Of a stretch of DNA of 64,000 nt, positions 24,064 through 54,536 are shown one piece after another. Each line of letters begins with the position of its first letter. Position 1 is the stretch's first letter. This DNA comes from Azolla caroliniana. Taxonomy: Eukaryota; Plantae; Polypodiophyta. The DNA lies in assembly GCA_043228905.1 (NCBI GenBank), contig JBHGNT010000008.1, positions 15,190,001-15,254,000 of the forward strand, written 5' to 3'. The notes under the pieces were generated by a model. The model saw only the letters and a list, made by a program, of their open reading frames with translations, had not been told where the DNA came from and searched no databases. Both the position numbers and the translations under genes were made by a program.

Positions 24064-25581
24064 CTACAACTTATATAGCTCAATGACACTAAATTCATTT
24101 ATCTTGGATTTTACTTCAAGACGAGCAAAACCAACACTTTTAGCAAGATTCTCAACCTCTTCTTGGGTTCGTTCTCTACCTCCAATGGTTTGGGTAAACA
24201 TATAAAGATCCAAATGGTAACCAACACGAGCTCTCAAGTCCCGTTCGATACCCATCGGCAATATTGCATCAATTATAATGACTTTTCCATTATTCAATAA
24301 TGCCTTGTAGCAATTCTCTAATATCTTCATGCAATGTTCGTCGCTCCAATCGTGCAAAACCGTCTATGCAATGTTAAATCTTGTTAGTTTTGTGCAAAGT
24401 CATTTAGACATAAAAGAATAATAAACTTATATGAATTTATTGGTACCAATAAATTTGTTAAATTTTAGATTGTCAGTGCATATATAGTTGAGCTAAGCGC
24501 AAATAATGACATTCTAATTGTATATTTTATTCAAAATATATTGTTGGATGCATTCTCATTATTTGGGTTTTGTTAACAATGCATGAGACTATACATATTA
24601 ATTAATACGGAAGGGATTTGAACCTTCATGAAAATTGCATCAGCTTGAGGTATTTCAATAAACATGTCACCTCCCACATGCTCGATTCCTTATATCAAAA
24701 AATAGTAAAATGAAATATATCAAAATTACTTATTTTTTAGTCTTCACGAACATTTCAAATTCATTATGTATATCAAACAATAGATGTGCTTGCCATAATT
24801 GCATACCTGAATAATTTGGGGCTAGAGAAATGACATGTGGTTGGTCAAAGTTTATACCACGAATGTGGGGAAAGCGAGAGATGATCAAATGAAGTGATGA
24901 TCCATGGCCACCACCAACATCAACGAGTATATTTATATCATCGAAACACGTGGGATAAGAGTCGAGGAGGTCACGAATGGGGATAGTGCTACCATTGGCC
25001 ATAGCAGTGTTGAAGATGGAACCAAAGTGTGGATCATGTTGGCCATATTCAAAAACATCTAGACCATCGTGGGCCTTGGCGAAGGGTTGGCCACCATCAA
25101 GAACAGCCTCATGTAAGACATGCCAAGATTTAATAGTAACAGGGTCTACACAGAGTCGCAGTAGTGGTGCCAAAGAGGATCCATTCTAGACAAAATATTG
25201 GCTAACTAAGTTAAGACCATATCTTCTTGTTGGGTGCTTAGTGAAGGGATCAAGACCAATGTCCGCATGAACAACACCATGACTAGTCACCACTCTCAAA
25301 AGTCTATCTAATGCTACGGAAACTCTTATATTGGCATCTGGTACGACACTACTACTCATTCGTGACACTATTTCTTCGACTGAATATAACCCTCGTTCCA
25401 TACCCTCCTCCTTTTCTATATCTGCATTTGCCATGACATCAAAGACTTTCAATTTTATGAGTGTGTTAATGGCCATGGGCAAACAACACAATAAGCTCAA
25501 TTCTACTCCCCTCAACCATGCTTCATTTTCCACTTCCTCACCCATCACCCCAAGCATCGACTCATTAACAATGTCACCCAT
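24064..25581 (-). pseudogene. Class II plant O-methyltransferase (COMT-like), three exons, single in-frame TAG at codon 132
   Basis: Exons 25581-24807, 24688-24624 and 24363-24064, joined by GT-AG introns into 1140 nt. Motifs LVDVGGGHG, GINFDQPHVI, EHVGGDMF, DAIFMK, catalytic-His LHDW and GGRERT. Stop at 25188-25186 with the frame continuing beyond it. Confidence 0.92.
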
Positions 25582-25586
25582 CCTCA

Positions 25587-25621
<35 letters not shown>

Positions 25622-25927
25622 CCTCTCTAGATCTGTCTATCCCTCTCTGTTCTAGGTGACTTTCTTATATAGCCTCATCATAGGGTATTTGTCTTGTCAT
25701 ATGATATAGACTTTCATATATAATCACAAGAAACAAGATTGAGAAGAAAACCAGAAAAGTAAAACTGAGCACGCTACTACCAAACAATCAATTTCTATGT
25801 CAAGTAGGCCCAAATGAATGTAATGCTTTTGTCTTTCCTTTTTTAAATGCTAAACGACCAATTTCTATCTGAATTCCTATGCAACGTAACATGTCACACA
25901 ATAGATTCACTGCACAGAAGATAAATG

Positions 25928-26718
25928 AAACACACATTAGCGTGCACATTTCTACCAAAAGAGAGAGCCAGTAATCTGCTGCAGAAGACATAGTATCAAC
26001 CAAAGCGCCTCAAAATTGTGGCTCTTAAGAGTGTCAAAACGGAGCACAGACCAACGCGAGGTTGAGAAGGAAAACCACAAACTCATACATGATTACTTAA
26101 ATTTGGAATATATTTCTTCGATGACAGGCAGAAAATTTGGAATATATTTTCTCGATCGTAGGATTATACAATGTGTGTGTATATGTGTGTTTCGTTGACA
26201 AGCGTCGGAAAAATGTAGGGAGTTTGCATCAAGAACAACCTCATGTAAGACATGCCAAGATTTAATAGTAACAGGGTCTACAGAGAGTCGAAGTAGTGGT
26301 GCCAAAGAGGATCCATTGTGAACAAAATATTGGCTAACTAAATTAAGACCATACCTTCTCGTTGGGTGCTTAGTGAAGGGATCATGACCAATGTCCGCAT
26401 GAACAACACCATGACTAGCCACCACTCTCAAAAGTCTATCTAATGATACGGAAACTCTTATATTGGCATCTGGTACGACACTACTACTCATTCGTGACAC
26501 TATTTCTTCGACTGAATATAACCCTCATTCCATACCCTCCTCCTTTTCTATATCTGCATTTGCCATCACATCAAAGATGTTCAATTTTATGAGTGTGTTA
26601 ATTGCCATGGGCAAACAACACAATAAGCTCAATTCTACTCCCCTCAACCATGCTTCATTTTCCACTCCCTCACCCATCACCCCAAGCATCGACTCATTAA
26701 CAATGTCACCCATCCTCA

Positions 26719-26751
<33 letters not shown>

Positions 26752-28042
26752 GGTCTGTCTATCCCTCTCTATTCTAGGTGACTTTCTTATATAGCCTCAT
26801 CATAGGGTAGTTGTCTTGTCATATGATATAGACTTTCATATATAATCACAAGAAACAAGATTGAGAAGAAAACCAGAAAAGGAAAACTGAGCATGCTACT
26901 GCCAAACAATCAATTTTTATGTCAAGTAGGCCCAAATGAATGTAATGCTTTTGTCTTTCCTTTTTTAAATGCTAAACGACCAATTTCTATCTGAATTCCT
27001 ATGCAACGTAACATGTCACACAAGAGATTCACTGCACAGAAGATCAATGAAACACACATTAGCGTGCACATTTCTACCAAAAGAGAGAGCCAGTAATCTA
27101 CTGCAGAAGACATAGTATCAACCAAAGCGCCTCAAAATGTGTGTGTATGTGTGTTTCGTTGACAAGAGTCGGAAAAATGTAGGGAGTTTGCATCCTACTG
27201 TGCAAAAGAGGAAAGTGTACATAAAGAGAGTCTAGATGGATGTAGCTTAATTGCTAAGGTTGCACAATGGAGACCTGAGGGTTATGGGTTCAACCCTTAC
27301 AATCTAGAGTGGCATCTACTAAATTAAGACTGAAGTGATATCTATGGAGTAATAGAGAGGTAAGCAAATTGGCTTTCGAATCTAAGACTTCGTGTACATT
27401 AATAGTGGAGTGCACCAAAAAACAACAAGGGGGGAGGAGGACATAATGGGTTTGCCATTTGGATTGGTTCGAAGACAAGTTTTTTTTTGTTTTGTTTTGG
27501 GAGGGTTTTGCCATAAGTTTTGGTTTGCTTTGGTTTGCTTGGAGTTTGGTAAGTCGTCAAAGATTTAGAAAGCAAACAAAAATTACCGAAAAAGTGAAGA
27601 GAGAGGGAGAGAGAGAGAGAGAGAGACATGTTCCAAAGATCATACAGATTGGGATGTAAATCTAGCAGATCGGGTTTCGAACTGAAGACATAGTGCACAC
27701 TAATAGTGGAGGGCAACAAAAAATAACAAGGGGGGGAGGAGGACATAATGTGTTTGCCATTTGGATTGGTTCGAAGCGAAGCTTTTTTTTTGTTTTGTTT
27801 TGGGGGGGTTTTGCCATGAGTCTTGATTTGATTTGCTTTGCTTGGAGTTTGGTAAGACGTCAAAGATTTAGAAAGCAAACAACAATTACCGAAAAAGTGG
27901 AGAGCGAGGGAGGGAGAGAGAGAGAAACATGTTCCAAAGATCATACAACTTGGGATGTATGTGCATGTGTCTTATCTCTCTAGAAAGCACGAGGTCCCCA
28001 AAACTGTTGCTTTCTATACACACACACCCACACACCACACAT

Positions 28043-28095
<53 letters not shown>

Positions 28096-28491
28096 ATTGT
28101 ATTGTGCAAAAGAGGAAAGTGTACATAGAGATAGTCCAGATGGATGTAGCTCAATTGGTAAGGTTGCCCAATGGAGACCCAAGGGCTATGAGTTGAACCT
28201 TTACAATCAAGAGTGGCATGTAGTAAATTTAGACTCAAGAGATAAGTAGGGAGTAACAGAGAGGTAAGCAAATCGGGTATCGAACCTAAGACATAGTGCA
28301 CACTAATAATGGAGAGCAACAAAAAACAACAAGGGGGGGAGGAGTACATAATGTGTTTGCCATTTGGATTGGTTCGAAGAGAAGCTTTTGTTTTGCGGGG
28401 GTTTTGCCATGAGTCTTTATTTGATTTGCTTTGCTTGGAGTTTGGTAAGACATCAAAGATTTAGAAAGAAAACAAAAATCACCGAAAAAGT

Positions 28492-28547
<56 letters not shown>

Positions 28548-29209
28548 GTGTTCCAAAGATCTTCTAGATAGGGATGTATGTGTGTGTGTCTTATCTCTCT
28601 AGAAAGCACGAGGTCCTCAAAACTCCTCCTTTCTATACAGACACACACACACACCACATGCAGAGAGAGAGAGAGTTTGAATTGTATTGTGCAAAAGAGG
28701 AAAGTGTACATAGAGATAGTCCAGATGGATGTAGCTCAATTGGACAGGTTGCCCAATGGAGACCCAAGGGTTATGTGTTGAGCCCTTACAATCAAGAGTG
28801 GCATCTAGTAAATTTAGACTCAAGAGATATGTAAGAAGTAACAGAGAGGTAAGCAAATCAGGTTTCGAACCTAAGACATAGTGCACACTATAATAGTGGA
28901 GAGCAACAAAAAACAATAAGGGGGGGAGCAGGACATAATGCGTTTGCCATTTGGATTGGTTCGAAGAGAAGCTTTTTTTTTGTTTTGTTTTGAGGGGGTT
29001 TGCCATGAGTCTTGATTTAATTTGGTCAAAGATTTCGAAAGCAAACAAAATCACTGAAAAAGTGAACACAGAGAGAGAGAGAGAGAGAGAGAAACATGTT
29101 CCAAAGATCGTACACGTTGGGATGTATGTGTGTGTCCTATCTCTTTAAAAATCATGAGGTCCCCAAAACTCCTGCTTTCTATATATACAGACACACCCAC
29201 ACACCACAC

Positions 29210-29255
<46 letters not shown>

Positions 29256-30207
29256 TGCAACCAAACAAAGGAAGTGCACAATCTAAAATATATCGATTTT
29301 CAGAAAAATAAAGAATGCATGTGTAAAGTACATACATACATATAACATATATACTTGGTTTGCGATGTTCGTTGGTGTGTTGTGCTCATTTCTTCTTCTT
29401 CTTATTAAAACAAAACAAAACGAAAAAAATAAAAATGAAGAAGAAGATCACTTAAACACACATTAGCTTGCACATTTCTACCAAAAGAGAGAGGTAGTAA
29501 TGTGCTACCGAAGACATAACATCAACTAAAGCACCTCAAAACTGTGGCTCTTAAGAGTGTCAAAACCAAGCACAAACAAATGCGAGGTTGAGAAGGAAGG
29601 CAACAAACTCAGACATGATTGCTTAAAGTTGGAATATATTTCTTCGATGACAGGCAGAAAAATTGGAACATGTTTTTTCAATGGCAAGCTTATGCAAACT
29701 GTGTGTGTGTGTGTGTGTGTGTTTCGTTGACAAACGTCGGAAAAATATAGGGAGTTGGCACTATACTATGCAAAAGAGGAAAGTGTACATAGAGAGAGTT
29801 CGGATGGATGTAGCATTTAGTAAATTAAGACGGAAGAGATATCTATGGAGTAACAGAAAGGTAAGCAAATTGGGTTTCAAACCTAAGACATAGGGCACAC
29901 TAATATTGGAGAGCAACAAAAAACAGTAAGGGGTGGAGGAGGACGTAATGGGTTTGCCATTTGGATTGGTTTGAAGAGAAACTTTTTTTTGTTTTGTTTT
30001 GGGGGGGGGTTGCCATGAGTCTTGATTTGCTTTACTTTGCTTGGAATTTGCTAAGATGTCAAAGATTTTAAAAACAAACAAAAAACACCCAAAAATGGAA
30101 GAGAGAGAGAGAGAAAGAGAGATGCCCCCAAAATTCCTGCTTATCTCTCTAGAAATCACAAGGTCCCCAAAAATCCTGCTTTTTATACACACACACACAC
30201 CCCACAC

Positions 30208-30256
<49 letters not shown>

Positions 30257-30382
30257 CAAAGTGCAACCAAACAAAGTGCACAATCTAAAGTATATCAAAT
30301 TTCAGAGAAATAAAGAAAATAACAAAAACAAAAATGAAGAATAAGAAGAAAAAGAAGATCACTGAAACACACATTAGCTTGC
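25928..30382. repeat. Complex tandem repeat (~0.55-0.9-kb units) with (GA)n and (CA)n tracts; resumes at 40823-41616
   Basis: Blocks AAAAGAGGAAAGTGTACAT, GCCATTTGGATTGGTT and AAACACACATTAGC recur at about 27205, 28108, 28693, 29772 and 41075. Confidence 0.88.
26227..26713 (-). pseudogene. Truncated tandem duplicate of the OMT exon-1 5' part (with upstream region to ~27190)
   Basis: Near-identical to 25095-25581 at offset 1132. Own nonsense codon TGA at 26527-26525 (CGA in copy 1). Breaks off at a CATC microhomology. Confidence 0.93.
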
Positions 30383-30739
30383 GAATAAAAGTATGCGAGT
30401 GGAAACACTATTATAACTAATCAGCTAGTAAAATGGTCATAGCTATCTAGTTTTTTGTGGGCAAATCATAAGGGTCATTTATGAAATTTTATGCTTTATT
30501 AGTTAAATACATGTCATTTAATTTATGAGAATGCTCAAAATTTTGAACTTTGCGGCTTAGGCATAGAGGACAAAACTGCTACTCTATTGGTACCCTTATG
30601 ACCATGCCACGACACATACCATATCGTTTGTTTTCAATATGCCTGTCACATTGCTATAGTCTGTTTGGGGGATTGCAATATAGCTCTCCTAGATGAGTGA
30701 AGAAAACTTATAGGTAAAATTGTTGCTTGGCTCTATAGT

Positions 30740-33265
30740 GTAGTAGCTAATTAGTTACATCTTAGCTAATTAGCTAAGCCGTATAAATTGTGGTAGCTAC
30801 TTAGTTGTTATGGTTCAGTAGTGTAGTAGCTAATTAGCTACAACCTAGGTATTAGCTAATTAGCCAAGATGTAAATAATTAGCTACTGCAAATCTATGGT
30901 TTAATAGCTAATTAGCTACTGCAAATCTATAGTCTAACAACTAATTAGCTATAGTGTAGCTAATTAGCTAAGCAGTATCAAAAGTGGTAGTTAATTAGCT
31001 ACTGCCATAGTTAAGAAGAATAGCTAATTAGCTACTATCATAATTAAGTAGAAAAGCTAATTAGCTACAACATCCTATAGTATAGTAGCGAATTAGCTAC
31101 TACCACACTTAAGTAGAATAGCTAATTAGCTTCGATGTAGCTAATTAGCTACTGCCAATCTAGAGTCAACATCTAATTAGCTAGCAATATCAAGAGTGGT
31201 AGCTAATTAGCTACTGCCATAATTAAGAAGAATAACTAATTAGCTAAGTTGTAGCTAATTAGTTACTCCCAATCTATAGTCTATAAGCTAATTAGCTAAG
31301 ATGTAGCTAATTAGGTAAACAATATCAAGAACGGTAGCTAATTAGCTCCTACCATACTTAACTAGCTAATTAGCTAAGATACAATAGCTAATTAGCTACT
31401 GAAGCCATAGTTAAGAAGAATAGCTAATTAGCTATTAAAGCCATAGTTAAGAAGAATAGCTAATTAGCTACTATCATAATTAACTAGAAAAGCTAATTAG
31501 CTACAACATCCTATAGTATAACAACGAATTAGCTACAATGTAGCTAATTAGCTAAGTGGTAGCTAATTAGCTACTACTACACTTAAGGAGAATAGCTAAT
31601 TAGCTACTGCCAATCTAGAGTGAACAACTAATTAGTTAGCAGTATCAAGAGTGGTAGCTAATTTGCTACTACCATAGTTAAGAAGAATAGCTAATTAGCT
31701 AAGTTGTAGCTAATTAGTTACTCCCAATCTATAGTCTATAAGCTAATTAGCTAAACAATATCAAGAATGGTAGCTAATTAGCTCCTACCATACTTAACTA
31801 GCTAATTAGCTAAGATACAATAGCTAATTAGCTACTACAGCCTATACTGTAGCAACTAATTAGCTACAATGTATTGAATTAGCTAAGTGGTAGCTAATTA
31901 GCTCCTACCATACTTAACTAGCTAATTAGCTAAGATACAATAGCTAATTAGCTACTACAGCCTATACTGTAGCAACTAATTAGCTACAATGTATTGAATT
32001 AGCTAAGTGATAGCTAATTAGGTATTGCCATAGTTAGGAAGAATAGCTAATTAGCTAAGATGTAGCAAATTAGCTAAGTGGTACCTAATTAGGTACTGCC
32101 AACCTATAGTCTAGTAGCTAATTAGCTAAGAAGTATCAAGAGTGGTAGCTAATTAGCTATTTCCATAGTTAGGAAAAATAGCTAATTAGCTAAGTGGTAG
32201 CTAATTAGCTACTGCCAACCTATAGTCTAGCAGCTAATTAGCTAAGATGTAGCCAATTAGTTAAGTGGTAGCTAATTAGCTACTACCAACCTATAGTCTA
32301 GTAACTAATTAGCTAAGATGTAGCTAATTAGCTAAGTGGTAGCTAATTAGCTATTGCCAACCTATCGTCTAGCAACTAATTAGCTAAGATATAACTAATT
32401 AGGTAAGTGGTAACTATTTAGCTACTACCAGTCTATAGTTTAGCAGCTAATTAGGTAAACAATATCAAGAGTGGTAGCTAATTAGTTACTACTATAGTTG
32501 GAAGAATAGCTAATTAGCTAAGTTGCAGCTAACTAGCTAAGTGGTAGCTAATTAGCTACTGCCAGCCTATAGTCTCGCAGCTAATTAGCTACTGCCATAG
32601 CTGGAAGAATAGCTAATTAGCTAAGATGTCGCTAACTAGCTAAGTAGTAGCTAATTAGCTACTGTCAACCTATAGTCTAGCAACTAATTAGCTAAGATGT
32701 ACCTAATTAGCTAAGTGGTAGCTAATTAGCTACTCCGAGCCTATAAACTAGTGACTAATTAGCTAAACAGTATCAAGAGTGGTAGCTAATTAGCTACTAC
32801 CATAGTTGGAAGAATAACTAATTAGCTAAGTTGTAGTTAACTAGCTAAGTGGTAACTAATTAGCTACTACCAACCTATACTCTAGCAGGTAATTAGCTAC
32901 TACCATAGTTGGAAGAATAACTAATTAGCTAAGTTGTCGCTAACTAGCTAAGTGGTAGCTAATTAACTACTGCCAATTAGCTATGACGTAGGTAATTAGC
33001 TAAGTGGTAGCTAATTAGCTACTTCCAACTTATAGTCTAACAGCTAATTAGTTATGAAGTAGCTAATTAGTTAAGCATTATCAAGAGTGATAGGTAATTA
33101 ACTACTACCATAGTTAAGAACAATAACTATTTAGCTAAGATGTAGCAGTATCGAGGAGTATCAAGAGTGGACGCTAATTACCTACCATGTAGCTAATTAG
33201 CTACCATGTTTAGAATTCAACTAAGGTCATAGAAAAACACAAGAGAAGCCACTAATTAGCTGACA
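30740..33265. repeat. Array 1 of palindrome TAGCTAATTAGCTA with short recurring spacers
   Basis: Roughly 100 copies (estimated, not counted). Spacers include AGATG, AGTGG, CTGCCATAGTTAAGAAGAA and AACAGTATCAAGAGTGG. An exact 120-bp higher-order repeat lies near 31780-32010. Confidence 0.95.
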
Positions 33266-33293
33266 TGTTGTAGAATCTCGTGGATTAAGGAGG

Positions 33294-34900
33294 TTGCATG
33301 AGGTGTCTGGTGCCGATGACGCCATAACTGATGAGGAGATAGTTGGCAACGTGGTTGAAAGTAAGAGTCCTGCTATCACATCTCCTTCAGATCAACTCCA
33401 CCCTATTCTTTTGGAAGATTGTTCTGAATTAGGCAACGTTGTGAAAAGCCATGAAATATTGGAAACAATATGTAAATATGAGGTTCATAACAACACTGTT
33501 TTTGAACACTTGATGCAACATTTCTTTGAATCACAAAACCTTGATTCAAGCCCACTGAGCCCAATTGCTGATGACGTCCCACCAGATCCCACTATACTTG
33601 AAAAGCTATCGCAAGACACAGCTAATGTGCAAGCCGTTGTTGAGGCAATGGAAATGTTGTTGGAGGAGGACACACTTGCGCAATGGATGAAAGAAGCAAG
33701 GCTAAATGGACAACCGACTAGAAAAAGGCTGAAGAAGGGGCCACAATCGGGGGCAAGACCAGTTACTCAATCAAGGGGCTCTTGAATTTGAGCTAATTAC
33801 TACCAATTAGTGATTAGTGGGATATGATTGTTAGCTATTTTCCTAGAAAATTATGAAGATGCCCTATGGTCTATTTGAACAAGTAGCACCTCATATTGGT
33901 TGTTGATTGATCCACATTATGTAATGGAACTCTATGATGGATATTAAGGTAATATTATTATTTTGTTGCAGAACATTTCATGTTCATTATGTTGTTTTGT
34001 GACACTGTTAGCCACTTTGTGAATGTGAATATGTTGGTGTTTTCTGATGTTGCAGAGTCTAAAGGGTTTGAATCTATTGCTCCTAAGGCCGATGGTAGTG
34101 TGGAAACTGTTGATGTTGTTGCATGTTTAGATGATCTAATTTTGCAGGTAGATGGAGCATGTGATACGAGTGGGCTGATATCGACTAGAGAAGTATCTAC
34201 ATGCGACACGGTCGATTATACAAGAACAAAATAGTGTGAAGCCAGACCTAATGACTACACAAGAGCAAAACAAGGTGAAGCCAAACCCAAAGACACAGTC
34301 GACCAGGGATTTGAAGAGGAAAAGGACACCAATTGTGTTGACAGAACCCGAGTTGTTCGAAATTGATTGTGTGCTACTAATACTTGGGGTAAGAGAGGCT
34401 CAGTTGTAGGAATGGAAACCTAAACAATTAGAAGATGAAAGAAGAGTCTTGATCTTGGAGCTTGATAAAGTCCTGATGAGTGTGCGATATATGACACCAA
34501 GGAGGGCCGCGAATCAATTTCTAGAGTGGGTTGTGCAATACTTTGATTTTTTTATTTGGAGTGAAAAACCACGTTCATATGTTTGGAAGTGTGTAGAAAA
34601 ATTCTTTCTAAAGTGACGACAACACTTCAAGGGTCAATGGACACGAGAAAGATGTGAGCAGTAGGATATTGCAAGATTCAAAAGACTTTTTGATTTTTGG
34701 GATATACCTTGCCCGAATAAAATGCCGACAATACATTGATTGTGGATACAGAACATTTCCGGCATTACTACAACCTTCGCAGATGCTGTCTCATTGTACC
34801 TGATGAAATGCCTAATAACTACTTGGTGAAAACATTGAGCTGCCAATTAACTGCATGGTTATGGACACTATATTGAGCTTGGTATGCAAATCACATATGT
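33294..34900 (+). pseudogene. Decayed accessory gene: acidic N-terminal ORF plus FCP1/NIF (HAD-fold) phosphatase-like domain
   Basis: ORF 33294-33785. From 34443: RVLILELDKVLMSV...PRRAANQFLEWVVQYFDFFIWS...YV...WTRERC...FKRLFDFW, then after a frameshift NTLIVDT...N...CLIVP. This follows the FCP1-homology motif order. Joining the segments into one gene is inference. Confidence 0.6.
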
Positions 34901-35389
34901 AGAGAAGTTCCACTGACCACCAAGAGCTTAGCTATTTATAGGCACTTTGTAGACATTGCCAATGGTGTATTATAAATATGTAATTTGATGACTGATTAAT
35001 CAATGAAGAATTAAATCGCTTGTTTTAAGTAAATTATCTAGTAACTATGTAATTTTAAAATAGGTCATAATTTGATTTATGTTTTCATGTTGCTGTTTGT
35101 TCTCAAAATGGCAAATTGTTTGAACTTGTACATGGTTCACTTGAGAGTAAAAAAACCATTGCCAAAATATATTCCATGCAGTATAATCGTCATTATGCAC
35201 ATTGAACAGACACTAAAACTCAAAGTGGCAATAAGTAAAACTGATTGTAATCAATACACATTTAACAAACAGAATTTTATTAAGAAACATAAACAAAAAA
35301 AAACTCCCAAACAATTTAATTAAACTGTTTTTTTGCAATACAACTACTTTGTCCACTTTACAAGAAAACTGGTATGATCTCCTTGTAGC

Positions 35390-35893
35390 TGTTAGGAAAC
35401 AGGTCCCTCCGAATGGGAAGTGAGAAGAACCGTGTTGATAAGCAACTCGGCCGAGGCCAAAACCGGAAATCGTGGAGATAGCCAACACAGAAGGCTAAAC
35501 TTGTAAATAGTCGAAAGGTTACATTAGTATGTAAGTACTTAGGGCAATCATGTTAGATAAGTGCATTATTGTAAAAGCTACCGACGACGAGGTCACTGCC
35601 TTTGTAACTGTGAGAGAAAACGAGTGGGAGTGAAAGCGTGTGAGCTCCATAGCCACCTGTTGGCGAAGCAAGATCTCGAGGTCGTTGCCTCTAAGATCTC
35701 TGATTGTATTCCTTTCTCTCATAGTGTTCTGTTTTGGAGTTTGTGGACTCCACGTGGTTTTTTTCCCAGTTCGGGTTTCCACATTAAAATCTGTGTCATT
35801 CTCAGTTTCTATATTCTATTTTTCCTTTCCATTAGATTGACTATTATTCCGCACACGTACAACCAGTTGTGGCCGGCAACAATTTTAACTTCA
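35390..35893 (+). mobile_element. Copia solo LTR inside the DNA transposon
   Basis: TGTTAGGAAAC...CTTCA with TSD GTAGC (35385-35389 and 35894-35898). Contains the GGTTTTTTCCC...GGGTTTCCAC block shared with the other copia LTRs. Confidence 0.88.
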
Positions 35894-35899
35894 GTAGCT

Positions 35900-38800
35900 A
35901 CAAATTCAATGGCATACTTTTGTAAATACATTCATACACATTAGCACTAACTGTGTATAAATCTGAGCAACTATTGTATTGCAACATCGGGACGTTGATG
36001 CACCTCACCAAATGAGACTACATGTACTCTACTGATTTGTCTTCTAAAAGCCTATACACATAATCATAATAATCTAGTCTTGCATAAAAAATACCTTTGA
36101 TGTAGAATGTCCCGACATATACAAAATTTCCCCAATCATCTACAATATTCTGTGTTGCACATTGTTTACGAACCATGCACTTCAATATATAGAAATCAAC
36201 ACCCTCTGATTTGTCTTCTTCTACATTTACAACGAAATTATTCCCAACGTTTATGACATCACTCAGAGTATCTCCACAACCTTGATATGTGAAGTCAACA
36301 TTGTTTTCTGTTTTTCCATCCGCTCGGTCCTTATCATTCTATGTATGGTACTCCCAATTCTGAATATATGCTTTGTTTAATCAATACCTCCAATTTCCCT
36401 GCACACAACGGAAGCAAAAACAAGTTAATTCTCTAACCGCAATACAATGACCATCCAACCTAGAATAACCCCAAACAACATGGAGAGATCACAATTTGGG
36501 AATTCCTTGGCACTCCCAGGTCTTCTCCCTATTTACTTCATCTATCTTCACTTCCCAAAATTCACGTTTGATATCTTAGACTTGAGAGGAATAAACACTA
36601 GTTGCACTCGTCCCTGCTCCATCATGTTCACCTTTACCATGGCCAGACCCAAAAAGATTCCATCTCATCTCCAAACCTGTTACAGAAGGATACCTCCCAA
36701 CAAAATAAAATGGACATCTAGCCTTTCGTTTATGACGTAGCTCCATTAGACTAGACCCAATATTGAGTAAGCTCCAAACGTTGACATAATAACCATTGCC
36801 AATGTAACTTAAAACAATGTTGGACAAACAAGGTATCATGCTTCTAATCATCAGAAATAAAAAAATGAATTACTTTCTTAACATCATCTGAAACTCGAAA
36901 ATATGTTATGTGCATTGAACACCAACGCATGGATTGAATTTTATTATGCTGCTTGAAAGTATAATTCTCTACGAAATCTCCTACTGAGTCTACTACATCA
37001 TTTGGAAAATCATATTTGCAAGTCTTAAACTGATGGGCTTGCCATGAATAAATGAAGTTGTGTTTAATGAACTTTCCTAGAGATACTATAAATAAAGAAA
37101 CCAAATCCCTTGGTTTAAGTGACTTCCTAACTAGATCCTTTATTTTACACACCTTTCCTTCAAAATTGGTGTCCATAGACTCAAAAACTTGATAGAGATT
37201 AATGTTTCACAACTCAACTCTTTTGGACACCACCTAAATCTACGAGGACCACAATCTTGACATAAACCCATACGACACATTTATGATTGTGGAAGATAGC
37301 CTCAGATTCTCTCAAACACAATACTGAATCTAAAAGACCACTCATGGAAGAGATAACATGCACTATGATTTACAGTGCTCTTGCAGGCTAGATCCACCAA
37401 TTGGCCATTCTCAAGTGCAGACTACATCGTCTAGGGAGGAGCTATTGTGACGTAGTAGATTAACAGATTCCTTGAGAAAACCCATTTGTACATGGTAAAT
37501 GCAACACCAGAGTATTGATCCTTTAAGCGTCTCACAAAGTGTGGCTTAAGAGACTCGAATGTTCGTAGTTGAACTTTGATATTTGGATGCATTCGCTTGA
37601 ACCTAATAAATAAATCAACTTTCGTAATAAAAAGGGAGTCCGGTGAGTATAAAAAATGTGCCCTAATGTAGCTAGTTAGATATAGCTAATTAGCTATTGA
37701 CTATAGCTAATGAGCTACCTCAATAGCTAGCTCTTGACATAGCTCATTAGCTATTGCCAGTAGCCAATTAGCTATTAAGAGTAGCTAATTAGATACTGAC
37801 TGTAGGTAATTAGCTATTAAGAGTAGGTAATTAGCCATTGACTATAGTTAATTAGCTATTAAGAGTAGCTAATTTACAATTGACAATAGCTAATTAGCTA
37901 ATGACATAGCTAGTTAGTTATTGCCAGTAACTAAATAGCTATTGACAATATCTAATTAGCTACCTTAATAATTAGCTAATTAGCTGATAAGTGCTAAGTT
38001 TACTATTGGCAATAGTTAAATAGTTCTTAACAGTAGCTACTTAGTTATGGTTATATTCTGAGGTAGTTAATTAGCTGATAATAACTTAGTTTAGTATTGG
38101 CAATAACTATTTATCTATTACCATTAGCTAGTTAGCTATGGTCATATTCTAAGATAGCTAATTAGCTATTGTGGTAGCTAATTAGTTGCTACACCAGTAA
38201 CTAGTTAGCTATGATCATATTCTGAGGTAGCTAATTAAATACCACAATAGCTAATTAGCTATCTCAAAATATGACCATAGCTAATTAGCTACCACAATAG
38301 CTAATTAGCTACCTTAGAATATGACCATAGCTAATTAGCTACCACAATAGCTAATTAGCTACCTCAGAATATGACCATAGCTAACTCGCTAATGGTAATA
38401 ACTAAATATCTATTGCCAATACTAAACTAAGCTATTATTAGCTAATTCGCTAGTTAGCTATGGTCATATTCTGAGTTAGCTAATTAGCTATTGTGGTAGC
38501 TAATTAGCTGATAATAGCTTAGTTTAGTAATGGCAATAACTATTGAGCTATTACCATTAGCTAGTTAGCTATGGTCATATTCTGAGGTAGCTAATTAGCT
38601 ATTGTGGTAGCTAATTAGCTATGGTCATATTCTGAGATAGCTATTTAGCTATTGTGGTAGCTAATTAACTGCTACACTAGTAACTAGGTAGCTATGCTCA
38701 TATTCTGAGGTAGCTAATTAGCTATTGCGGTAGCTAATTAGCTGATAATAGCTAAGTTTAGTATTGGCAATAACTATTTAGCTATTACCAGTAGCTAGTT

Positions 38801-39400
38801 AGCTATGATCATATTTTTAGGTAGCTAATTAGCTATGGTCATATTCTGAGTTAGCTAATTAGCTATTGTGGTAACTAACTAGGTGATAATAGCTAAGTTA
38901 GGTATTGTCAATCGCTATTTAGCTATTACCAGTAGCTAGTTAGCTATGGTCATATTCTGAGGTAGCTAATTAGCTACTGGTAATAGCTTAATAGATATGG
39001 TTATACTCTGAGATAGCTAATTAGTTGATAATAGTTAAGTTTGCTATTGTCAATCGCTATTGAGCTATTACCAGTAGCTAGTTAGCTATGATCATATTCT
39101 AAGATAGCTAATTAGCTAACTAACTAAGCGTAAAAATCAAAACAAAAGTTGACATAAATGTAAATACCTAAGGTACATCAAGAAGATGAATGGGATATTC
39201 CTCGTATTGACTCGTTCCAACACGTTTCCTACATAAATCCTTCTTATTAGGTGAAATCCTACTCTCATTAGTCCAAAATATGGTGATTATATCCTTGATT
39301 TTTGATGTTATGGGTGTCATTGGCTTACATCTTGTTGTTAGCTTTAGCAAACTAATTCCTTCACCACTTGAAATTATTTGGTTCATTGTATTGTACACAA
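35900..39400 (-). pseudogene. Sola2-like DDD transposase, decayed, with the second palindrome array in a putative intron
   Basis: Ordered motifs SRISPNKKD, FESLKPHFV, CCIYHVQM, HNFIYSWQ, DFVENY...IQSMRW, ISDD..HD, WV*SNG, WNLFGSGHGKGEHDGAG and RELTCFCFRC. Family assignment is from recalled motifs and needs an HMM check. Confidence 0.75.
37665..39125. repeat. Array 2 of palindrome TAGCTAATTAGCTA with a different spacer set and an internal inversion
   Basis: Spacers TTAAGAG, TTGTGG and TGGTCATATTCTGAGG. Segment ~38240-38450 carries the reverse-complement spacers CCACAA and CCTCAGAATATGACCA. Confidence 0.93.
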
Positions 39401-40119
39401 TTTTTCTACTAACACCAATTAGCTTAGACTAGACCTTTTTAAGACAAGATCATCTTTTGACCTGCTCATGGATACGAAACTATTATAGAGATTATTTACT
39501 AGTATAGATGTTATGTTTGCATTAAGATCGTCACAATCAACAAACTCCTTTATCGCTGGATCATTTAATATTCCGTAAAGTACTACCTTCTTGTCTTCAT
39601 TGCTGATGTGCTTGGTCTGAACATTGAAATAGTCTACAACCTATCTCTCTATGATAGTAGTCTCATTACTTCCATTCTCAGTGGTATTTAGACCTATATC
39701 GCAACCAATGCTATGCTTACTTTTAGTGAATGTGGCGTTTGTATCCTTCAACAATGGACAATGTTTCCTTTTTTTTTATGCCCAATACTTTCGTATCGCT
39801 TGTTGTAACCTGATAGCGTCATCCCTATCCTGGTGATCCACGAGAGGTATTGGTAAACACCCTCCTTCCCCTTTCATTTGTCTTGACATATTCATTAGTA
39901 AATTTCCACAACCAAAAGACACGTAGCTAGTTACTAAACAACTTGCAAACCAGTTATTCATAGGAGCGATCCCACCGTTGGTAAGTTTATTTTTGTTGCA
40001 GCGGAGTAATAGCTACTCAACTACCATCGGGAACGAGCTAAGATGACTATGGGCAACAACAATACACAAAATTATTCCGCAATACATAGGATAATCAACA
40101 AACGGAATAATTATTGCAA

Positions 40120-40550
40120 TCCAGGGTTGAACAGTGGCGGCGATCTAGGACCGAACAGTGGCAGCAACTGACTATAGAATGGCGGCAGTGGAGGAGTAAA
40201 ATCCGTCGGATCGAACAATGACAGATGATGCTTGGAATGCACAGTGGCGGAAACTGAGTGTAGAATGGTGGCAATGGAGGAGTGAACTCCGTTGGATCGA
40301 ATAGTGGCAACAATCCACGACCGAATAGTAGCGGCAACTGAGTGTAGAATGGCGGCAATGGAGGAGTGAACTCAATAGGAGCGAACAATCGCAGATGATG
40401 CTTGGACCGAACGGTAGCGAGAACTGAGTGTAGAATGGCAGTGATGGAGGAGTGAGCTTCGTTGGATCAAACAATGGCAAATGATGCTTGGATTGCACAA
40501 TGGCGGCAACTGAGTGTATAATAGCGGCAATGGAGGAGTGGACTCAATAG
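40120..40550. repeat. About five ~80-90-bp tandem units near the right end of the DNA transposon
   Basis: ACTGAGTGTAGAATGGCGGCAATGGAGGAGTGAACTC recurs at about 40167, 40253, 40336, 40423 and 40509. Minus-strand reading gives a repeated FTPPLPPFYTQ peptide. Confidence 0.85.
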
Positions 40551-41616
40551 GGTTTAGGAACAATGGAAGTAATCTAAGCTTGGATAGTAACAACGTGATG
40601 TGCCAATGGATCATGCATAATGGACCTAGGAATTCGGTATATAATTGACGGTGCACATATACATTTATGGTGCACGTTTATGGTGCTCATTTATATAATT
40701 AAAATATTCTAACGTTTTCATTCATGGTGCAAAAATGACTATTTATCATTGGTAGTTTTTTACATAGCTAATTAGCTATGTCAAGGACATAACTAATTGT
40801 TTCCACTTGCATGCTTTCACCTTTGCACGTTTCTATCGAAAGAGAGAGGCAGTAATTTGTTGCAGATGCCATAGCATCAACTAAAGTGCCTCAAAATTGT
40901 GGCTTTTAAGAGCGTCAAAATTGTGGCTCAGACAAACGCGAGGTTGAGAAGGAAAACCACAAACTCAGACATGATTACTTAAAGTTGGAATATATTTCTT
41001 CGATGCCTTGCAAAAAAATTGGAACATGTTTTTTCGATGGTAGGATTAAACAAAGTGTGTGTGTGTGTGTGTGCAAAAGAGGAAAGTGTACATAGAGACA
41101 GTTCGAATGGATGTAGCTCAATTGGTTAGCTTGCCAAATGGAGACCCGAGGGTTATGGGTTATGTGTTGAACCCTTACACTCAAGAGTGGCATCTAGTAA
41201 ATTAAGACTCTAGAGATATCGATGGAATAACAAAGAGGTAAGCAAATCGGGTTTCGAACCTAAGACATAGTGCACACTAATATTGGAGAGCAACAAAAAA
41301 CAATAAGCGAGGGAGGAAGACGTAATGGGTTTGCCATTGGGATTGGTTCAAAGAGAATCTCTTTCTTGTTTTGCTTTGGCGGGATTTTTGCCATGAGTCT
41401 TGATTTGATTTTCGTTGCTTGGAGTTTGGTAAGACGTTAAAGATTTAAAAAGCAAACAAAAGTCACTGAAAAAGTGAAGAAAGAGGGAGAGAGATAGAGA
41501 GAGATAGAGATAGATAGATAGAGAGATAGAGAGATAGAGAGAGAGCCAAAGTGCAACCAAACAAAGGAAGTGCACAATCTAAAATATATCAATTTTCAAA
41601 TAAATAAAGAATGCGT

Positions 41617-48300: not shown

Positions 48301-48473
48301 TACGTGACGAATCTGGCGCTGCTTCATTTACTCCTTCCATGTAGCTCCAGTATCTATGCCCCAGCAAGCACTGATGCATTTTATACAACCAGGACGCATA
48401 GTTGCTCCAGTCGAGCTTTTATGTAGAAAGCAAGCTCGCCATGCTTCTGTCCATATCCTTTCTTTTCGGTCTG

Positions 48474-48550
48474 TGTCATGAGATGGCAAGACTCGAACCC
48501 ATGACCTTATGGTATATGGGTCGAGCTCTTAACCATCTCACCATCTATTG
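48474..48550 (-). promoter_or_regulatory. tRNA-like Pol III A/B-box module at the LTR outer end (also 1901-1977 and 53622-53698)
   Basis: Minus strand reads TGGTGAGATGG (TAGTCTAATGG in element A) ... AGGTC-ATGGGTTCGAGTC with tRNA-like spacing. Confidence 0.65.
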
Positions 48551-48904
48551 TAATTCATAGAATATTATTTTCATTTATGTTTTATTATAAGAAAGTAATG
48601 TATATTCCAGATTTCTCTGGAACATTCTAGAAGCTTCAGGATTATTCCTGAGAACACTATAAAAGAAGGCACTAAGCATTATGTTGAACCAAATTGGTTC
48701 AACACCAGTCTTAAGCCTCTTAGTCGATTTGTACTTATCTTTCATATAATATAAGAGCTGCTGTCATCATCCTATCTCTCTCTCTCTCTCCTCTTCTCAC
48801 TTCCTCTCTCTCGGGAATCTTACGCAGTCCCGTCCTCTTAGTACTAATAGTACTACTCTTCTTAGTACTAATTCCATCTCTGTTTTAGTACTATTCCTGA
48901 CAGT

Positions 48905-50041
48905 TTGAACCAATCCGTTTTCTCCGAGCTACAGTGCCTAAAAGAAAAGTTTGTTGCCTTGGAACAAGAAAACCAACGGCTGATAGGGGATCTGCAACAA
49001 ATCGCTCTAGAAAAACAACAAACGCAACAACAACATGGGGAGTTAGCGTTACGGGTACAACAACTCGAAGCAGCGTTGCAACAACAAGGATCCAGTCCCC
49101 AAGGATTTCATAAAGAGCCCAAGATTGGACTTCCTGTGAAATTTGATGGAACGCGTTCGCAATTTCGGGGATTCCTTAATCAGGTACGCTTAGTCATCCA
49201 GATGCATCCTTCCCGATATCCCACTGATGCATCTCGAGTCGGCCTAATAGGCACGCTACTTAGCGGCTCAGCCTTGGCATGGTTCGCTCCGCTTCTAGAA
49301 AAACAATCGCCCCTGCTTAATAACTTTGAAGATTTTATTGGTGAGTTTAAAGCCTGCTTTGGAGACACCGACAGCATCAGGACGGCGATCAACAAGATCC
49401 GGCGATTGCGTCAAGGCGATCGTCCAGCCTCTGCCTACGCGGCGGATTTCCGCCTACTTGCTTCAGATATACCCTGGGATGATCAAGCACTAATGGAGCA
49501 GTTTCGCTATGGCTTGCGAAACGATGTCAAAGATCTACTTCTAACTTTCCCCGAAGAACCAAAGTCTCTTACGGAGGCAATCAGTCGAGCAGTTCGATGT
49601 GACAACCGCCTTTTTGAACGGCGTTCAGAACGTCAATTACAGATACCACGCTCTAGGCCAGAGCCCACTTACGCCGCAGTCGCGGCTAAACCGTTTGCAC
49701 GAGACATACCTCAAGCAAATACTTCGACACCGATGGAGATCGATACCATGCGTCGACGCGGCCCGTTATCGGAAGAAGAAAAGCAACGACGACGTGCCAA
49801 TCGATTATGCCTTTATTGCGGTGGACCAGGACATATCGCCATCAATTGTCCCCATAGGCCAAGAAGACAGGTAAATCAAATTGTCGCCTGTACTAAACCT
49901 GAGTCAATTCTTCCCTTCGGAGTGTCTGATAGTAGTAATAGTACTAATAGAGTGTCAGATAGTATTCATAGTACTAATAGCCCAAGTATCTCAAATAAAT
50001 TTGAAATCCTTAGTCAATTAGATGAAGAGTTAAACGATTGA
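48905..50041 (+). CDS. gag: Gag (coiled-coil N-terminus, capsid, CCHC knuckle); start codon uncertain
   Basis: KFDG...F...SALAWF, LRQG, QFRYGL, PMEID and CLYCGGPGHIAINCP. First in-frame ATG is only at 49202. Confidence 0.93.
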   Translation: MNQSVFSELQCLKEKFVALEQENQRLIGDLQQIALEKQQTQQQHGELALRVQQLEAALQQQGSSPQGFHKEPKIGLPVKFDGTRSQFRGFLNQVRLVIQMHPSRYPTDASRVGLIGTLLSGSALAWFAPLLEKQSPLLNNFEDFIGEFKACFGDTDSIRTAINKIRRLRQGDRPASAYAADFRLLASDIPWDDQALMEQFRYGLRNDVKDLLLTFPEEPKSLTEAISRAVRCDNRLFERRSERQLQIPRSRPEPTYAAVAAKPFARDIPQANTSTPMEIDTMRRRGPLSEEEKQRRRANRLCLYCGGPGHIAINCPHRPRRQVNQIVACTKPESILPFGVSDSSNSTNRVSDSIHSTNSPSISNKFEILSQLDEELND

Positions 50042-50084
50042 GTCCAGCCAAAATAGGAGCCATTTGGTTGGACAGCAGCCCTAG
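50029..50084 (+). promoter_or_regulatory. -1 programmed ribosomal frameshift signal
   Basis: G TTA AAC at 50029-50035 in gag phase, 6-nt spacer, then an 11-bp stem (50042-50052 with 50063-50073). The pol frame opens only at 50026. Confidence 0.8.
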
Positions 50085-53000
50085 ATCTGTACAGCCCATT
50101 AGTGGTTCCATTCCTTCCAAGCAAGTTAGCAATGTGTTCCTAGCCCAAGTCATTGTTAGTACTAAAAGTACTCCCCCAGTACCCGTCCTAGCACTTTTAG
50201 ATTCCGGAGCTAATTCCTGTTTCATGGATCGAAATTTTGCCCAAGCTTCTCAGATATCCTTAAGAAAACTTCCTTGTCCCGCATCTGTAGTGGTCATTGA
50301 TGGTCGTCCCATTGCTTCCGGGAATATTGTAGAAGAATCAGAACCCATTCAAGTTGTCCTAGGTAGTTTTGTGTGTATAATATCATTTAATATAATTAGT
50401 AGTCCAGAGCATCCCATTGTCCTAGGATTACCTTGGCTTGAGTTACATAATCCAGCCATAGATTGGAGAACAAGAGAAGTCCGATATCGACCACCCCAAG
50501 AATCAACTCGCCGAGTTTCGACCATTTCACTCCATCAACTACGCGAAGAAGGACCCAAGGAGGAAATGTTCCTATTTTCCATATCAGTACATCCTTCCAG
50601 CACTATTAAGAAGGACTCCTCAGTACAACTTCCGGCAAAATATCATCCTTATGCCGATGTATTTGACAAGGTAAAAGCCGGTACCCTTCCTCATCACCGT
50701 CCCTATGACTGTCCCATCGATTTACAACCAGGAACCGAGCCACCATGGGGACCAATTTACAACCTGTCACCCACCGAGTTAGAAGTCCTTCGAGCCTACA
50801 TAGAGGAGAACTTGGCAAGCGGGTTCATCCGTCATTCGAAATCTCCGGCCGGTGCACCCATCTTCTTTGTCAAGAAGAAAGATGGCTCACTTCGTCTTGT
50901 CGTTGATTACCGCGGATTAAATAAAGTCACCATCCGGAATAGGTATGCACTTCCTCTTATATCAAGTCTTTTAGAGCGAGTTAATGGTGCCAAGTTTTTT
51001 ACTAAAATCGACCTACGCGGAGCGTATAATCTCGTGCGGATCCGACCGGGAGATGAGTGGAAGACCGCTTTTCGCACGCGGTATGGGCATTTTGAGTATA
51101 CTGTTATGCCGTTTGGCCTAACCAATGCACCCGCAGTCTTCCAACACATGGCAAATGATATATTCAGAGACCTCTTGGATATCTGTTTGATCATTTATCT
51201 GGATGATCTGTTGATTTATTCGAAGACCCAGGAAGAGCACGACTCTCATGTACTATTAGTACTAAAGCGACTCCGCGAGAATGGTCTTTATGCCAAGCTA
51301 GAAAAATGTAGCTTTGACTGCAAGCAAGTGGAATTTCTAGGCTACGTCATCTCCTCAAAGGGCATCGCCATGGATCCAGCTAAGATCCAAACTGTACTAG
51401 AGTGGCAAATTCCACGGTCGGTACGAGATGTACAATGTTTTCTAGGTTTTGCTAACTTCTACCGTAAGTTTATACAGGATTACTCGAAGATTATTTTACC
51501 TCTCACACAACTTACGAAGAAGGGCCAAGCATTTCTTTGGTCCATTGAAGCAGATATGGCTTTTCGGCATCTTAAGAAAGCCTTTACATCAGCACCGATT
51601 CTAGCTCATGTGGATACAAGCAAACCATTCATCATGGAGGCCGACGCATCAGATTTCGCCCTCGGTAGCATCCTTTCTCAACAAGGTGATAAAGAAGAGT
51701 TGCATCCGGTGGCTTTCCATTCGCGCAAATTCGATGTCGCAGAAATCAACTACGAAATACATGACAAGGAGTTATTAGCCATCGTGGATTCATTTGTACA
51801 ATGGCGGCATTTCTTAGAGGGCTCTCCACATCAGGTCATTGTCTTCAGCGATCATAAAAATCTTGCTTATTTTCAGAACGCTCGCGTACTAAATCGACGG
51901 CAAGCTCGGTGGGCGCAATTCCTCATGCGTTTCGACTTTAAAATCACATATCGACCGGGGAAGCAGCAAGGAAAAGCAGATGCACTATCACGACGTTCAT
52001 ATCTTGCACCTCGTCCTGGTGAAGCAACATTTGATAATCAAAAGCAAGTAATCTTGGGACCAACACGATTGCACACGACGCGGATTTTTCACACCCCGAT
52101 GGATTCACGGATTACCGATGACATACGTGCAACCTTGAAGACGGATAGTTTTGCTCAAGACATCCTGGCGCACATTGATACTTCTCGGGCATCCTGTTCT
52201 CAGTCTCAACAACCAGGTATTGACTACCGACAATTCGAATATCATGATGGTTTGTTATTCTTTAAAAAGCACGTATATGTCCCCGATTGCTCCTGTCGCC
52301 TTCAAATTGTCCAACATTGTCACGACACCCATACGGCGGGACATTTCGGTAGTACTAAGACGTTGGAGCTAGTGCAGCGATCTTTTTGGTGGCCCCACAT
52401 GCGCCGTTTTGTCGACGACTACGTTCGGACCTGTGATGCTTGCTGCCGAGCAAAAATGCCACGACACCATCCATATGGCTTGTTGGAACCTTTACCAATT
52501 CCAAGTAAGCCATGGCAGTCTATTTGTCTTGATTTTATCACAGATCTGCCGGTCTCGAAAGGGTTCGATGCTATCCTAACCGTCGTCGATCGATATACGA
52601 AGATGGCACATTTTGTGCCATGTACTAAAGCTATCACTAGCGAGGAAACCGCCGCTCTTGTTATGCGTGAGGTTTTTCGGCATCATGGCCTCCCAGACAG
52701 TATTATCAGTGACCGAGGCCCGCAATTTGTCTCCAAATTTTGGCAGCATCTCTTCAAGATGCTCAAGGTCTCCTGCAACCTCTCCTCCGGCTACCATCCT
52801 CAAACCGACGGACAGGCGGAACGAACAAACCAAACGCTGGAGCAATATCTCCGGTGCTTCCTGAGTTATCAACAGGACGATTGGGCCGAGATTCTCCACT
52901 TTGCGGAGTTTGCGTATAATAATGCTATTCACTCCTCGACTCGGGTCTCCCCATTTTTCGCTTATACCGGTTTCCATCCTCGCTGGTCGGTGATCGACAC

Positions 53001-53610
53001 TCCGGAGCTACCTACCAACCCTCGTGCCGAGGATCATTTGGAGAGGCTACGCAAGATCCAGATGGATCTCTCTACTCACCTTCGTCATGCTCAACACACA
53101 CAGAAGACTTATGCGGATCGTCATCGGATTCCCTCCTCTTTTGCCATCGGAGATCGAGTATGGCTCTTACGTCGTCACATCAAGACTACTCGACCGTGCG
53201 ACAAGTTGGATTATCGACGACTCGGTCCTTTCCGTATTACGGGGAAGATTAATGACGTCACCTTCCGCCTTGATCTCCCTCCGCAGCTTCAGATACATCC
53301 GGTTTTCCATTGTTCTCTTCTTGAACCTTATAAAGCAAACACCATTCCCGATCGTGTGACACCACCGCCGCCCCCACTGGAGTTGGACGCCGGCCCGGAG
53401 TATGAAGTTGCTGCCATCCTCGATTCCAAACTTGTTCGCAACAAACTCTATTACTTGGTCGATTGGCTCGGTTATAGTCCGAGCGAACGTACTTGGGAAC
53501 CCGTCGAGAATGTTGCCAATGCACAAGATCTTCTTGCTGATTTCCACCGAAAGTATCCGGACAAACCCGGTCCGCAAGTAGCGCTGACTCGTTCCACTCG
53601 TCGTCTTTAA
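50038..53610 (+). CDS. pol: Pol (protease, RT, RNase H, integrase, chromodomain) in the -1 frame relative to gag
   Basis: LLDSGA, MPFGL, YLDD, DASDFALG, HHCC/DDE integrase and C-terminal chromodomain; 1190 codons open. Confidence 0.97.
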   Translation: MSPAKIGAIWLDSSPRSVQPISGSIPSKQVSNVFLAQVIVSTKSTPPVPVLALLDSGANSCFMDRNFAQASQISLRKLPCPASVVVIDGRPIASGNIVEESEPIQVVLGSFVCIISFNIISSPEHPIVLGLPWLELHNPAIDWRTREVRYRPPQESTRRVSTISLHQLREEGPKEEMFLFSISVHPSSTIKKDSSVQLPAKYHPYADVFDKVKAGTLPHHRPYDCPIDLQPGTEPPWGPIYNLSPTELEVLRAYIEENLASGFIRHSKSPAGAPIFFVKKKDGSLRLVVDYRGLNKVTIRNRYALPLISSLLERVNGAKFFTKIDLRGAYNLVRIRPGDEWKTAFRTRYGHFEYTVMPFGLTNAPAVFQHMANDIFRDLLDICLIIYLDDLLIYSKTQEEHDSHVLLVLKRLRENGLYAKLEKCSFDCKQVEFLGYVISSKGIAMDPAKIQTVLEWQIPRSVRDVQCFLGFANFYRKFIQDYSKIILPLTQLTKKGQAFLWSIEADMAFRHLKKAFTSAPILAHVDTSKPFIMEADASDFALGSILSQQGDKEELHPVAFHSRKFDVAEINYEIHDKELLAIVDSFVQWRHFLEGSPHQVIVFSDHKNLAYFQNARVLNRRQARWAQFLMRFDFKITYRPGKQQGKADALSRRSYLAPRPGEATFDNQKQVILGPTRLHTTRIFHTPMDSRITDDIRATLKTDSFAQDILAHIDTSRASCSQSQQPGIDYRQFEYHDGLLFFKKHVYVPDCSCRLQIVQHCHDTHTAGHFGSTKTLELVQRSFWWPHMRRFVDDYVRTCDACCRAKMPRHHPYGLLEPLPIPSKPWQSICLDFITDLPVSKGFDAILTVVDRYTKMAHFVPCTKAITSEETAALVMREVFRHHGLPDSIISDRGPQFVSKFWQHLFKMLKVSCNLSSGYHPQTDGQAERTNQTLEQYLRCFLSYQQDDWAEILHFAEFAYNNAIHSSTRVSPFFAYTGFHPRWSVIDTPELPTNPRAEDHLERLRKIQMDLSTHLRHAQHTQKTYADRHRIPSSFAIGDRVWLLRRHIKTTRPCDKLDYRRLGPFRITGKINDVTFRLDLPPQLQIHPVFHCSLLEPYKANTIPDRVTPPPPPLELDAGPEYEVAAILDSKLVRNKLYYLVDWLGYSPSERTWEPVENVANAQDLLADFHRKYPDKPGPQVALTRSTRRL

Positions 53611-54536
53611 GGGGGAGATAGTGTCATGAGATGGCAAGACTCGAACCCATGACCTTATGGTATATGGGTCGAGCTCTTAACCATCTCACCATCTATTGTA
53701 ATTCATAGAATATTATTTTCATTTATGTTTTATTATAAGAAAGTAATGTATATTCCAGATTTCTCTGGAACATTCTAGAAGCTTCAGGATTATTCCTGAG
53801 AACACTATAAAAGAAGGCACTAAGCATTATGTTGAACCAAATTGGTTCAACACCAGTCTTAAGCCTCTTAGTCGATTTGTACTTATCTTTCATATAATAT
53901 AAGAGCTGCTGTCATCATCCTATCTCTCTCTCTCTCTCCTCTTCTCACTTCCTCTCTCTCGGGAATCTTACGCAGTCCCGTCCTCTTAGTACTAATAGTA
54001 CTACTCTTCTTAGTACTAATTCCATCTCTGTTTTAGTACTATTCCTGACAGTCTGTTCTTTTCTGGAAGTTAGGGTTTGTCCGTTTCAAGTAGTTGTCGT
54101 CAGCAGAGGTTCTCAACCCTCCCACTCTGATACCATGAAAATGTTAATATGCGGAAATTTTAATAAAACGGCTCAGTCGGATAGCAACAGAATATTGACA
54201 GGTTTAATGGAAGCTTAGAATACACAGTACACGGGAGAGACAAAGAGAGCAGAACAAATAAACTAAATTCAAAATAATAACACTCTATGTACATACAAAT
54301 ATCCTACATAACCCTTTTTATACAACTCCTTAAAATGAATGGCAGAAGTATTGATAGGTACTTCAATGCTCATATGAGTGACTGACAATGACTCCCAACA
54401 ATACGCTTACGTACAATGCTCATATGGTTACAATCCGGTCAGTCTCTCCGTTCCGGCTCCTGGTTCCGGATATCGATCCGGTTCTTCGTTCCAGAATCCA
54501 ATCCGGCTTTGGTTTATTGAGCTTGTCTGCTCAACA

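Follow-up and report, generated by a model that had tools for sequence, protein, structure and literature searches.

Two hypervariable blocks of a repeated 14-bp palindrome, TAGCTAATTAGCTA, fill predicted introns of a Sola2-type DNA transposon in Azolla caroliniana. The transposon, a decayed element of 10.4 kb, occupies positions 30383-40822 of a 64,000-bp stretch of contig JBHGNT010000008.1 (positions 15,190,001 to 15,254,000), hereafter the window, and this copy is dead, with both of its genes broken. Judging from sequence, and with somewhat better than even confidence, we read the two blocks as arrays of binding sites for a protein encoded by the element, probably serving to counteract silencing.

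Allowing one mismatch, the palindrome is matched 99 times in the window, versus 0.00 expected from 100 shuffles, with 65 matches in a first array, 33 in a second and one at 40765. Array 1 (30744-33262) comprises 94 units, 35 of them (37%) perfect, 30 with one mismatch, 21 with two and eight with three or four; the repeated 14-bp palindrome of the initial annotation is confirmed, its description as perfect applying to that 37%. The spacers, which include the types named there, measure 5 nt in 36 of 92 intervals and 17-19 nt in 43 of 92. Array 1 takes up 98% of a predicted intron (30714-33273) that is delimited by a GT donor at 30714, following a RING-like exon of the accessory gene, and an AG acceptor at 33273. 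Array 2 (37669-39118) holds 56 units with spacers unlike those of array 1 and takes up 94% of a predicted transposase intron (39167-37620), the acceptor of which has decayed in the window copy; in one intact copy, GT and AG bound both arrays. Wherever both flanking exons could be located in a copy, array 1 separates the RING-like exon from the following accessory exon, and array 2 separates the two transposase exons. The other introns of the element are short and motif-free. The motif is also present between the two genes, and the same 14-mer stands beside both terminal inverted repeats (TIRs), as had been noted at the outset: with two mismatches on the left (30414-30427), where intact copies carry two perfect palindromes 26 bp apart, and perfect on the right (40765-40778). 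The motif contains neither CG nor CHG, as initially described, all four of its cytosines lying within CTA.

The attribution of the array to a transposon with TIRs also holds, and the motif is tied to the transposon family. In the window copy, the 25-bp left TIR (30383-30407, forward strand), with three changes relative to the family sequence GGGTAAAAGCATGCGAGTGGAAACA, and the right TIR (40798-40822, reverse strand) are flanked by matching 4-bp target-site duplications (TSDs), TTGC, at 30379-30382 and 40823-40826, and the corresponding empty site is found as a host-repeat unit at 29425-29500 with a single TTGC. This host repeat, the insertion target of the element, extends over 25900-30340 and 40823-41600 in units of 300-1000 bp and contains AG and TG microsatellites. 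Aligned flanks of related loci define family TIRs of 25 bp, GGGT(A/G)AAAGCATGCGAGTGGAAACA. A set of 20 young copies, spanning TIR to TIR and drawn from the TIR pairs listed first for contigs C1-C4, ranges in length from 10.1 to 12.2 kb; 4-bp TSDs of varied sequence and GGG...CCC termini are present in 20 of 20, and these termini agree with the 5'-GRG that the original Sola paper reportedly gives for Sola2. The family is young and numbers some 420 copies, with 843 TIR ends genome-wide at one mismatch or fewer; all 150 transposase matches scored are at least 96% identical, and most lie within a 619-aa open frame.

The nearest copy, L035:669-3445, lies 50 kb before the window and has its left flank in common with the window copy, which indicates local duplication and no separate insertion. 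Comparison by blastn with this sister copy, together with landmarks, revealed that 2,011 bp have been deleted internally from the window copy, with the junction at 30551-30552. The deletion took the 5' exons of the accessory gene, encoding its N-terminal domain and coiled coil, and it is because of this loss that array 1 had been described as lying upstream of that gene; it is in fact located inside a predicted intron, with the RING exon before it and the 3' exons after it.

The transposase is encoded on the reverse strand by exon 1 (39168-39892), with a weak helix-turn-helix (HTH) match (Pfam HTH_11, E 6e-5 in an intact copy, below cut-off), and exon 2 (35910-37619), which encodes the DDD catalytic domain and contains stops and frameshifts in the window copy. 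Residues D215, D298 and D339 are invariant in 72 sequences, as is HGK, and the structural model (predicted local distance difference test, pLDDT, 89) is of RNase H type and weakly matches integrases and RNase H in Foldseek. Named homologues come from a moss, a liverwort, ferns and conifers. Sola2 elements have been described as encoding a DDD transposase with the motifs DFAENY, QxEIQSxHW, ISDD, SDGAxxQxK and WxFFxxxHGKxxxDG, and as having 4-bp TSDs and short TIRs (PMC3627910). The present family agrees in TSD length and short TIRs and, in a by-eye comparison with the published alignment, in the motifs around the catalytic residues; its TSDs, varied in all 20 young copies, depart from the AWWT rule of Sola2. 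A second gene, Fanzor, can be carried by Sola2 elements (PMC10741241), whereas the second gene here encodes a 135-aa helical N-terminal domain, a coiled coil, a RING and a degenerate NIF domain. In the window, this accessory gene survives on the forward strand as a RING-like exon remnant with two stops (30551-30713) and as 3' exons, also with stops (33274-34972), for an acidic linker and a degenerate NIF/FCP1-like domain (Pfam NIF, E 1e-4 in the window copy and 2.5e-7 in an intact copy). The gene is under purifying selection, and its 135-aa domain has 139 relatives and a confident model, and matches no named family. Contigs from three presumed-RNA runs (one study, of a relative) lack the short intron that precedes the RING exon, and a fourth run reads through into it.

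Among the 31 unique units of array 1, variability is lower in the palindrome than in the spacers at both G/C (0.134 versus 0.206) and A/T positions (0.025 versus 0.076), and the palindrome is likewise more conserved in 127 units pooled from eight related copies, the units of an array not being independent of each other. The consensus is identical in 58 of 58 arrays, a result that is partly circular. Across lineages and introns, spacer sets have for the most part nothing in common, and in diverged lineages, up to a synonymous divergence (dS) of ~0.9, the motif is kept and the spacers are replaced. Family homology was detected at 15 of the 22 metagenome loci, where accessory identity falls as low as 39-65%, and the motif was found in 8 of 10 diverged loci of the A. 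caroliniana genome, one of these without an array. The most variable bases of the motif are the central and outer ones, resembling a pair of half-sites 2 bp apart; in three of four sets, cytosines at outer positions mutate more than those at inner positions in an identical context. Intervals between motifs concentrate in three ranges (18-22, 27-33 and 40-42 bp), 23-26 bp being represented by only 9 of 568, and the observed phase score was reached by none of 20,000 per-array shifts.

In the mechanism that we favour, the palindrome, which looks like a pair of TAGCTA half-sites 2 bp apart and recurs at nearly integral helical turns, would be bound by an element-encoded protein. The accessory protein would most likely be this reader, with the HTH of the transposase as the alternative. 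A single subterminal site may have been copied into the introns, putatively the sole internal space free of coding constraint, and the sites may have expanded there through slippage and unequal exchange restarting at the palindrome. The arrays would be retained since more sites recruit more protein; the amplified sites would let the protein coat the element, probably shielding it from host silencing in the manner of VANC on VANDAL elements.

VANDAL elements of Arabidopsis carry an accessory gene, VANC, and a short family-specific motif repeated in tandem in introns, intergenic and terminal regions; the motifs differ between related families, and both motif binding and demethylation have been demonstrated for VANC (PMC5735166). 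The Sola2 family resembles them in its accessory gene and in the tandem repetition of its motif in the same three kinds of region and, judged by this layout, works like the VANDAL/VANC system without being a member, its transposase being Sola2, with a 4-bp TSD, and not that of a MULE. Its palindrome of 14 bp further differs from the 9-bp non-palindromic motif of VANC, and its accessory protein adds RING and NIF domains and gave no Pfam match to DUF1985/PMD. VANC is described as specific to dicots (PMC13547354), whereas the host here is likely a seed-free plant. TnpA of Spm/CACTA and the AtMu1 transposase are reported to act as sequence-specific activators through dense clusters of family-specific motifs, in a preprint whose main text mentions neither Sola nor ferns or mosses (bioRxiv 10.64898/2026.08.24.746577). 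The presence of the motif at the termini is shared with these systems, in which the transposase itself can be the reader; unlike their terminal clusters, nearly all copies here lie in two internal introns. Literature searches, the scope of which did not extend to the original Sola paper, Repbase or the preprint supplements, found no description of the motif or of Sola intron arrays.

A sister Sola2 family was found using a codon pattern for the HGKG motif. The sister transposase (~46% identity) is present in six of nine fetched loci, and the 14-mer in none of these sister-family loci. Three complete copies have TIRs different from those of the 14-mer family, 4-bp TSDs (3/3) and a RING exon. 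In place of the 14-mer, the introns and ends of the sister family bear a different palindrome, the core of which is AGTACT. In the sister copy measured, AGTAC has a density of 22 per kb in the RING intron and 31 per kb in the transposase intron, versus 0-3 in exons; the array-bearing transposase intron is at another position than in the 14-mer family, and AGTACT adjoins both TIRs. By eye, a 52-bp sister unit (18+34) resembles a 52-bp unit of the window lineage (19+33), and the motif may therefore have switched from a common ancestor. The sister loci (L128-L139) have the TIR GGGTCGAAGCATGCTACGGTGTACCAA and arrays rich in AGTACT/TAGTACTA; one variant of the sister motif, TAGTATTAC, equals the VANC21 motif YAGTATTAY, possibly by chance.

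Several observations weigh against a protein-bound array of this kind. The conservation excess of array 2 is small or absent: it is lacking at G/C (interval -0.015 to 0.068) and, in young copies, at A/T. The initial claim of a palindrome kept while its spacers vary concerned array 1, for which it is supported. The motif itself was used to find the units, making its constancy partly circular, and perfect units amount to only 8-64%, young copies included. The contrast between inner and outer cytosines is gone in deep lineages (40 versus 40), the observed spacings could have been inherited from a pair of ancestral units, and the sister family is only weakly phased (mean cosine 0.11-0.36). L182, the most divergent of the copies examined, carries isolated sites and lacks an array. 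The match to VANC21 is at noise level and lacks sequence support. Lastly, the motif also occurs in the long terminal repeat (LTR) of an unrelated Copia element, which fits a host reader equally well. The amplified binding site proposed in the initial annotation is still the best reading of the sequence, tempered by this LTR and by array 2.

The Copia LTR bears directly on the possibility, which we consider unlikely, that a host transcription or chromatin factor binds the palindrome, which the transposon and, separately, Copia would exploit as an intronic enhancer or insulator. Five sites outside arrays comprised one family end, one non-autonomous copy of ~300 bp and three Copia LTRs; the LTR carries ~4 motif copies in its first 150 bp and has 403 matches genome-wide. 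A host reader would also suit the constancy of the motif while the element proteins diverge by 35-50%, and the core TAATTA is of the homeodomain type, GTAC being the core of SBP sites. The LTR cluster, however, resembles a family intergenic stretch, spacers included (83% over 59 bp), which suggests capture by the LTR; capture and hitch-hiking on the activator of the Sola2 element is possible, and an unrelated element sharing a VANC motif, AT9TSD1, is known (PMC5735166). Moreover, the motif changes with the family and adjoins the TIR in both families, and the 19,622 perfect palindromes of the genome (11 for the reversed control) are accounted for by ~420 elements with ~50 perfect copies each. 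A general genomic satellite unlinked to the family, the refutation foreseen at the outset, was rejected: the first array loci on contig C1 all lie inside family elements (7/7, a small sample from a single contig), most of the metagenome loci show family homology, and the five sites outside arrays belong to the family or to Copia LTRs. Motif-bearing Copia LTRs were observed at L146:2191-2631, L147 (with a second LTR 12.2 kb on), L203 and L205.

We likewise doubt that the arrays are functionless minisatellites, in which the palindrome, at once a direct and an inverted repeat of TAGCTA, promotes slippage, template switching and inversion and is thereby copied and homogenised, and which introns tolerate. 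Array lengths do vary widely (827-2063 and 531-1565 bp), with no identical pair among the 20 young copies; many units are imperfect; and further motif-free tandem repeats occur in the same elements, an 86-bp palindrome-free repeat lying 5' of the transposase in the window copy (40127-40551). Array 2 contains an inverted block (38228-38452) with palindrome units at both bounds, and in one copy the spacers of the transposase intron are those that its sister copy has in the accessory intron (cosine 0.94; sister support 96/93). This array transfer indicates that palindromes are places of exchange; such exchange accounts for the amplification and makes conservation a weaker argument for function. 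Recombination at the word that is shared most often, of the kind evidenced by the inverted block and the transfer, would also homogenise the motif, a further point against a bound site. On the other hand, a single 14-mer is maintained across near-saturated synonymous divergence, its variability is half-site-like and spacings of 23-26 bp are avoided, the sister family independently filled a differently placed intron with its own motif, and the element's other introns have stayed short and motif-free.

A role in RNA, through self-folding of the introns, tuning of splicing by branch-point-like CTAAT words or regulation of the element by small RNAs, is highly improbable: both arrays lie within predicted introns, each unit reads CTAAT then TAG on both strands, CTAAT being likened to the branch-point consensus, and array 2 contains a 174-nt, 93% complementary inverted pair, but the motif also stands beside both TIRs and between the genes, its spacing follows the DNA helix and, among the 25 longest pairs listed, the long inverted pair is confined to the inverted block of the window copy.

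The resemblance to CRISPR remarked on initially is superficial. As in CRISPR arrays, a constant palindromic repeat alternates with spacers; CRISPR spacers are unique, acquired and ~25-45 nt long, between repeats of at least 23 nt, whereas here the repeat is 14 bp, the 5-19-nt spacers are found many times over and have been copied as blocks, and the setting is a eukaryotic transposon intron. A CRISPR array was rejected on spacer and repeat size and recurrent spacers, together with 0 Rfam matches in 30300-40900 and no cas gene among 10 of the 27 long open reading frames (ORFs) of the window and the element exons, the families found being retroelement, O-methyltransferase, NIF and HTH.

Among related loci, L204:1800-2098 is a ~300-bp non-autonomous derivative that keeps both TIRs and subterminal palindromes, and L087:6000-6500 shows a motif-bearing unit of ~255-295 bp, present in one to four copies between the two convergent genes of young copies. 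A Sola1-type element (L033:1174-8827; DUF7869, E 3e-53), with ORFs that by eye are ParB-like and methyltransferase-like, is nested in a transposase exon of a copy of the 14-mer family. Elsewhere in the window, an O-methyltransferase exon (24730-25185; Methyltransf_2, E 6e-21) adjoins a 925-bp tandem duplication (25095-27143), and 48473-54055 holds a chromodomain Ty3/gypsy element that appears to be intact, its 435-bp LTRs being 99.8% identical.

To return to the reading of the arrays as binding sites, a more specific version, which we advance tentatively and think apter to fail than to hold, is that a VANC-like anti-silencing system of their own operates in the Sola2 elements of seed-free plants. 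Helically phased intron palindromes would there be read by an accessory protein that combines a remote VANC/PMD-type DNA-binding domain with a coiled coil, a RING and a phosphatase-like domain; this protein would co-evolve with the motif between families and be parasitised by a motif-capturing Copia. Among flowering-plant transposons, anti-silencing by element-encoded sequence-specific proteins is known from MULE and CACTA elements; to find this architecture in a third superfamily, and probably beyond the seed plants, would show its repeated evolution. Two co-resident families with different motifs offer a ready swap test of protein-motif co-evolution. The 135-aa accessory domain is a candidate DNA-binding module, and the family has many intact, near-identical copies and has put ~20,000 perfect sites into its host genome.
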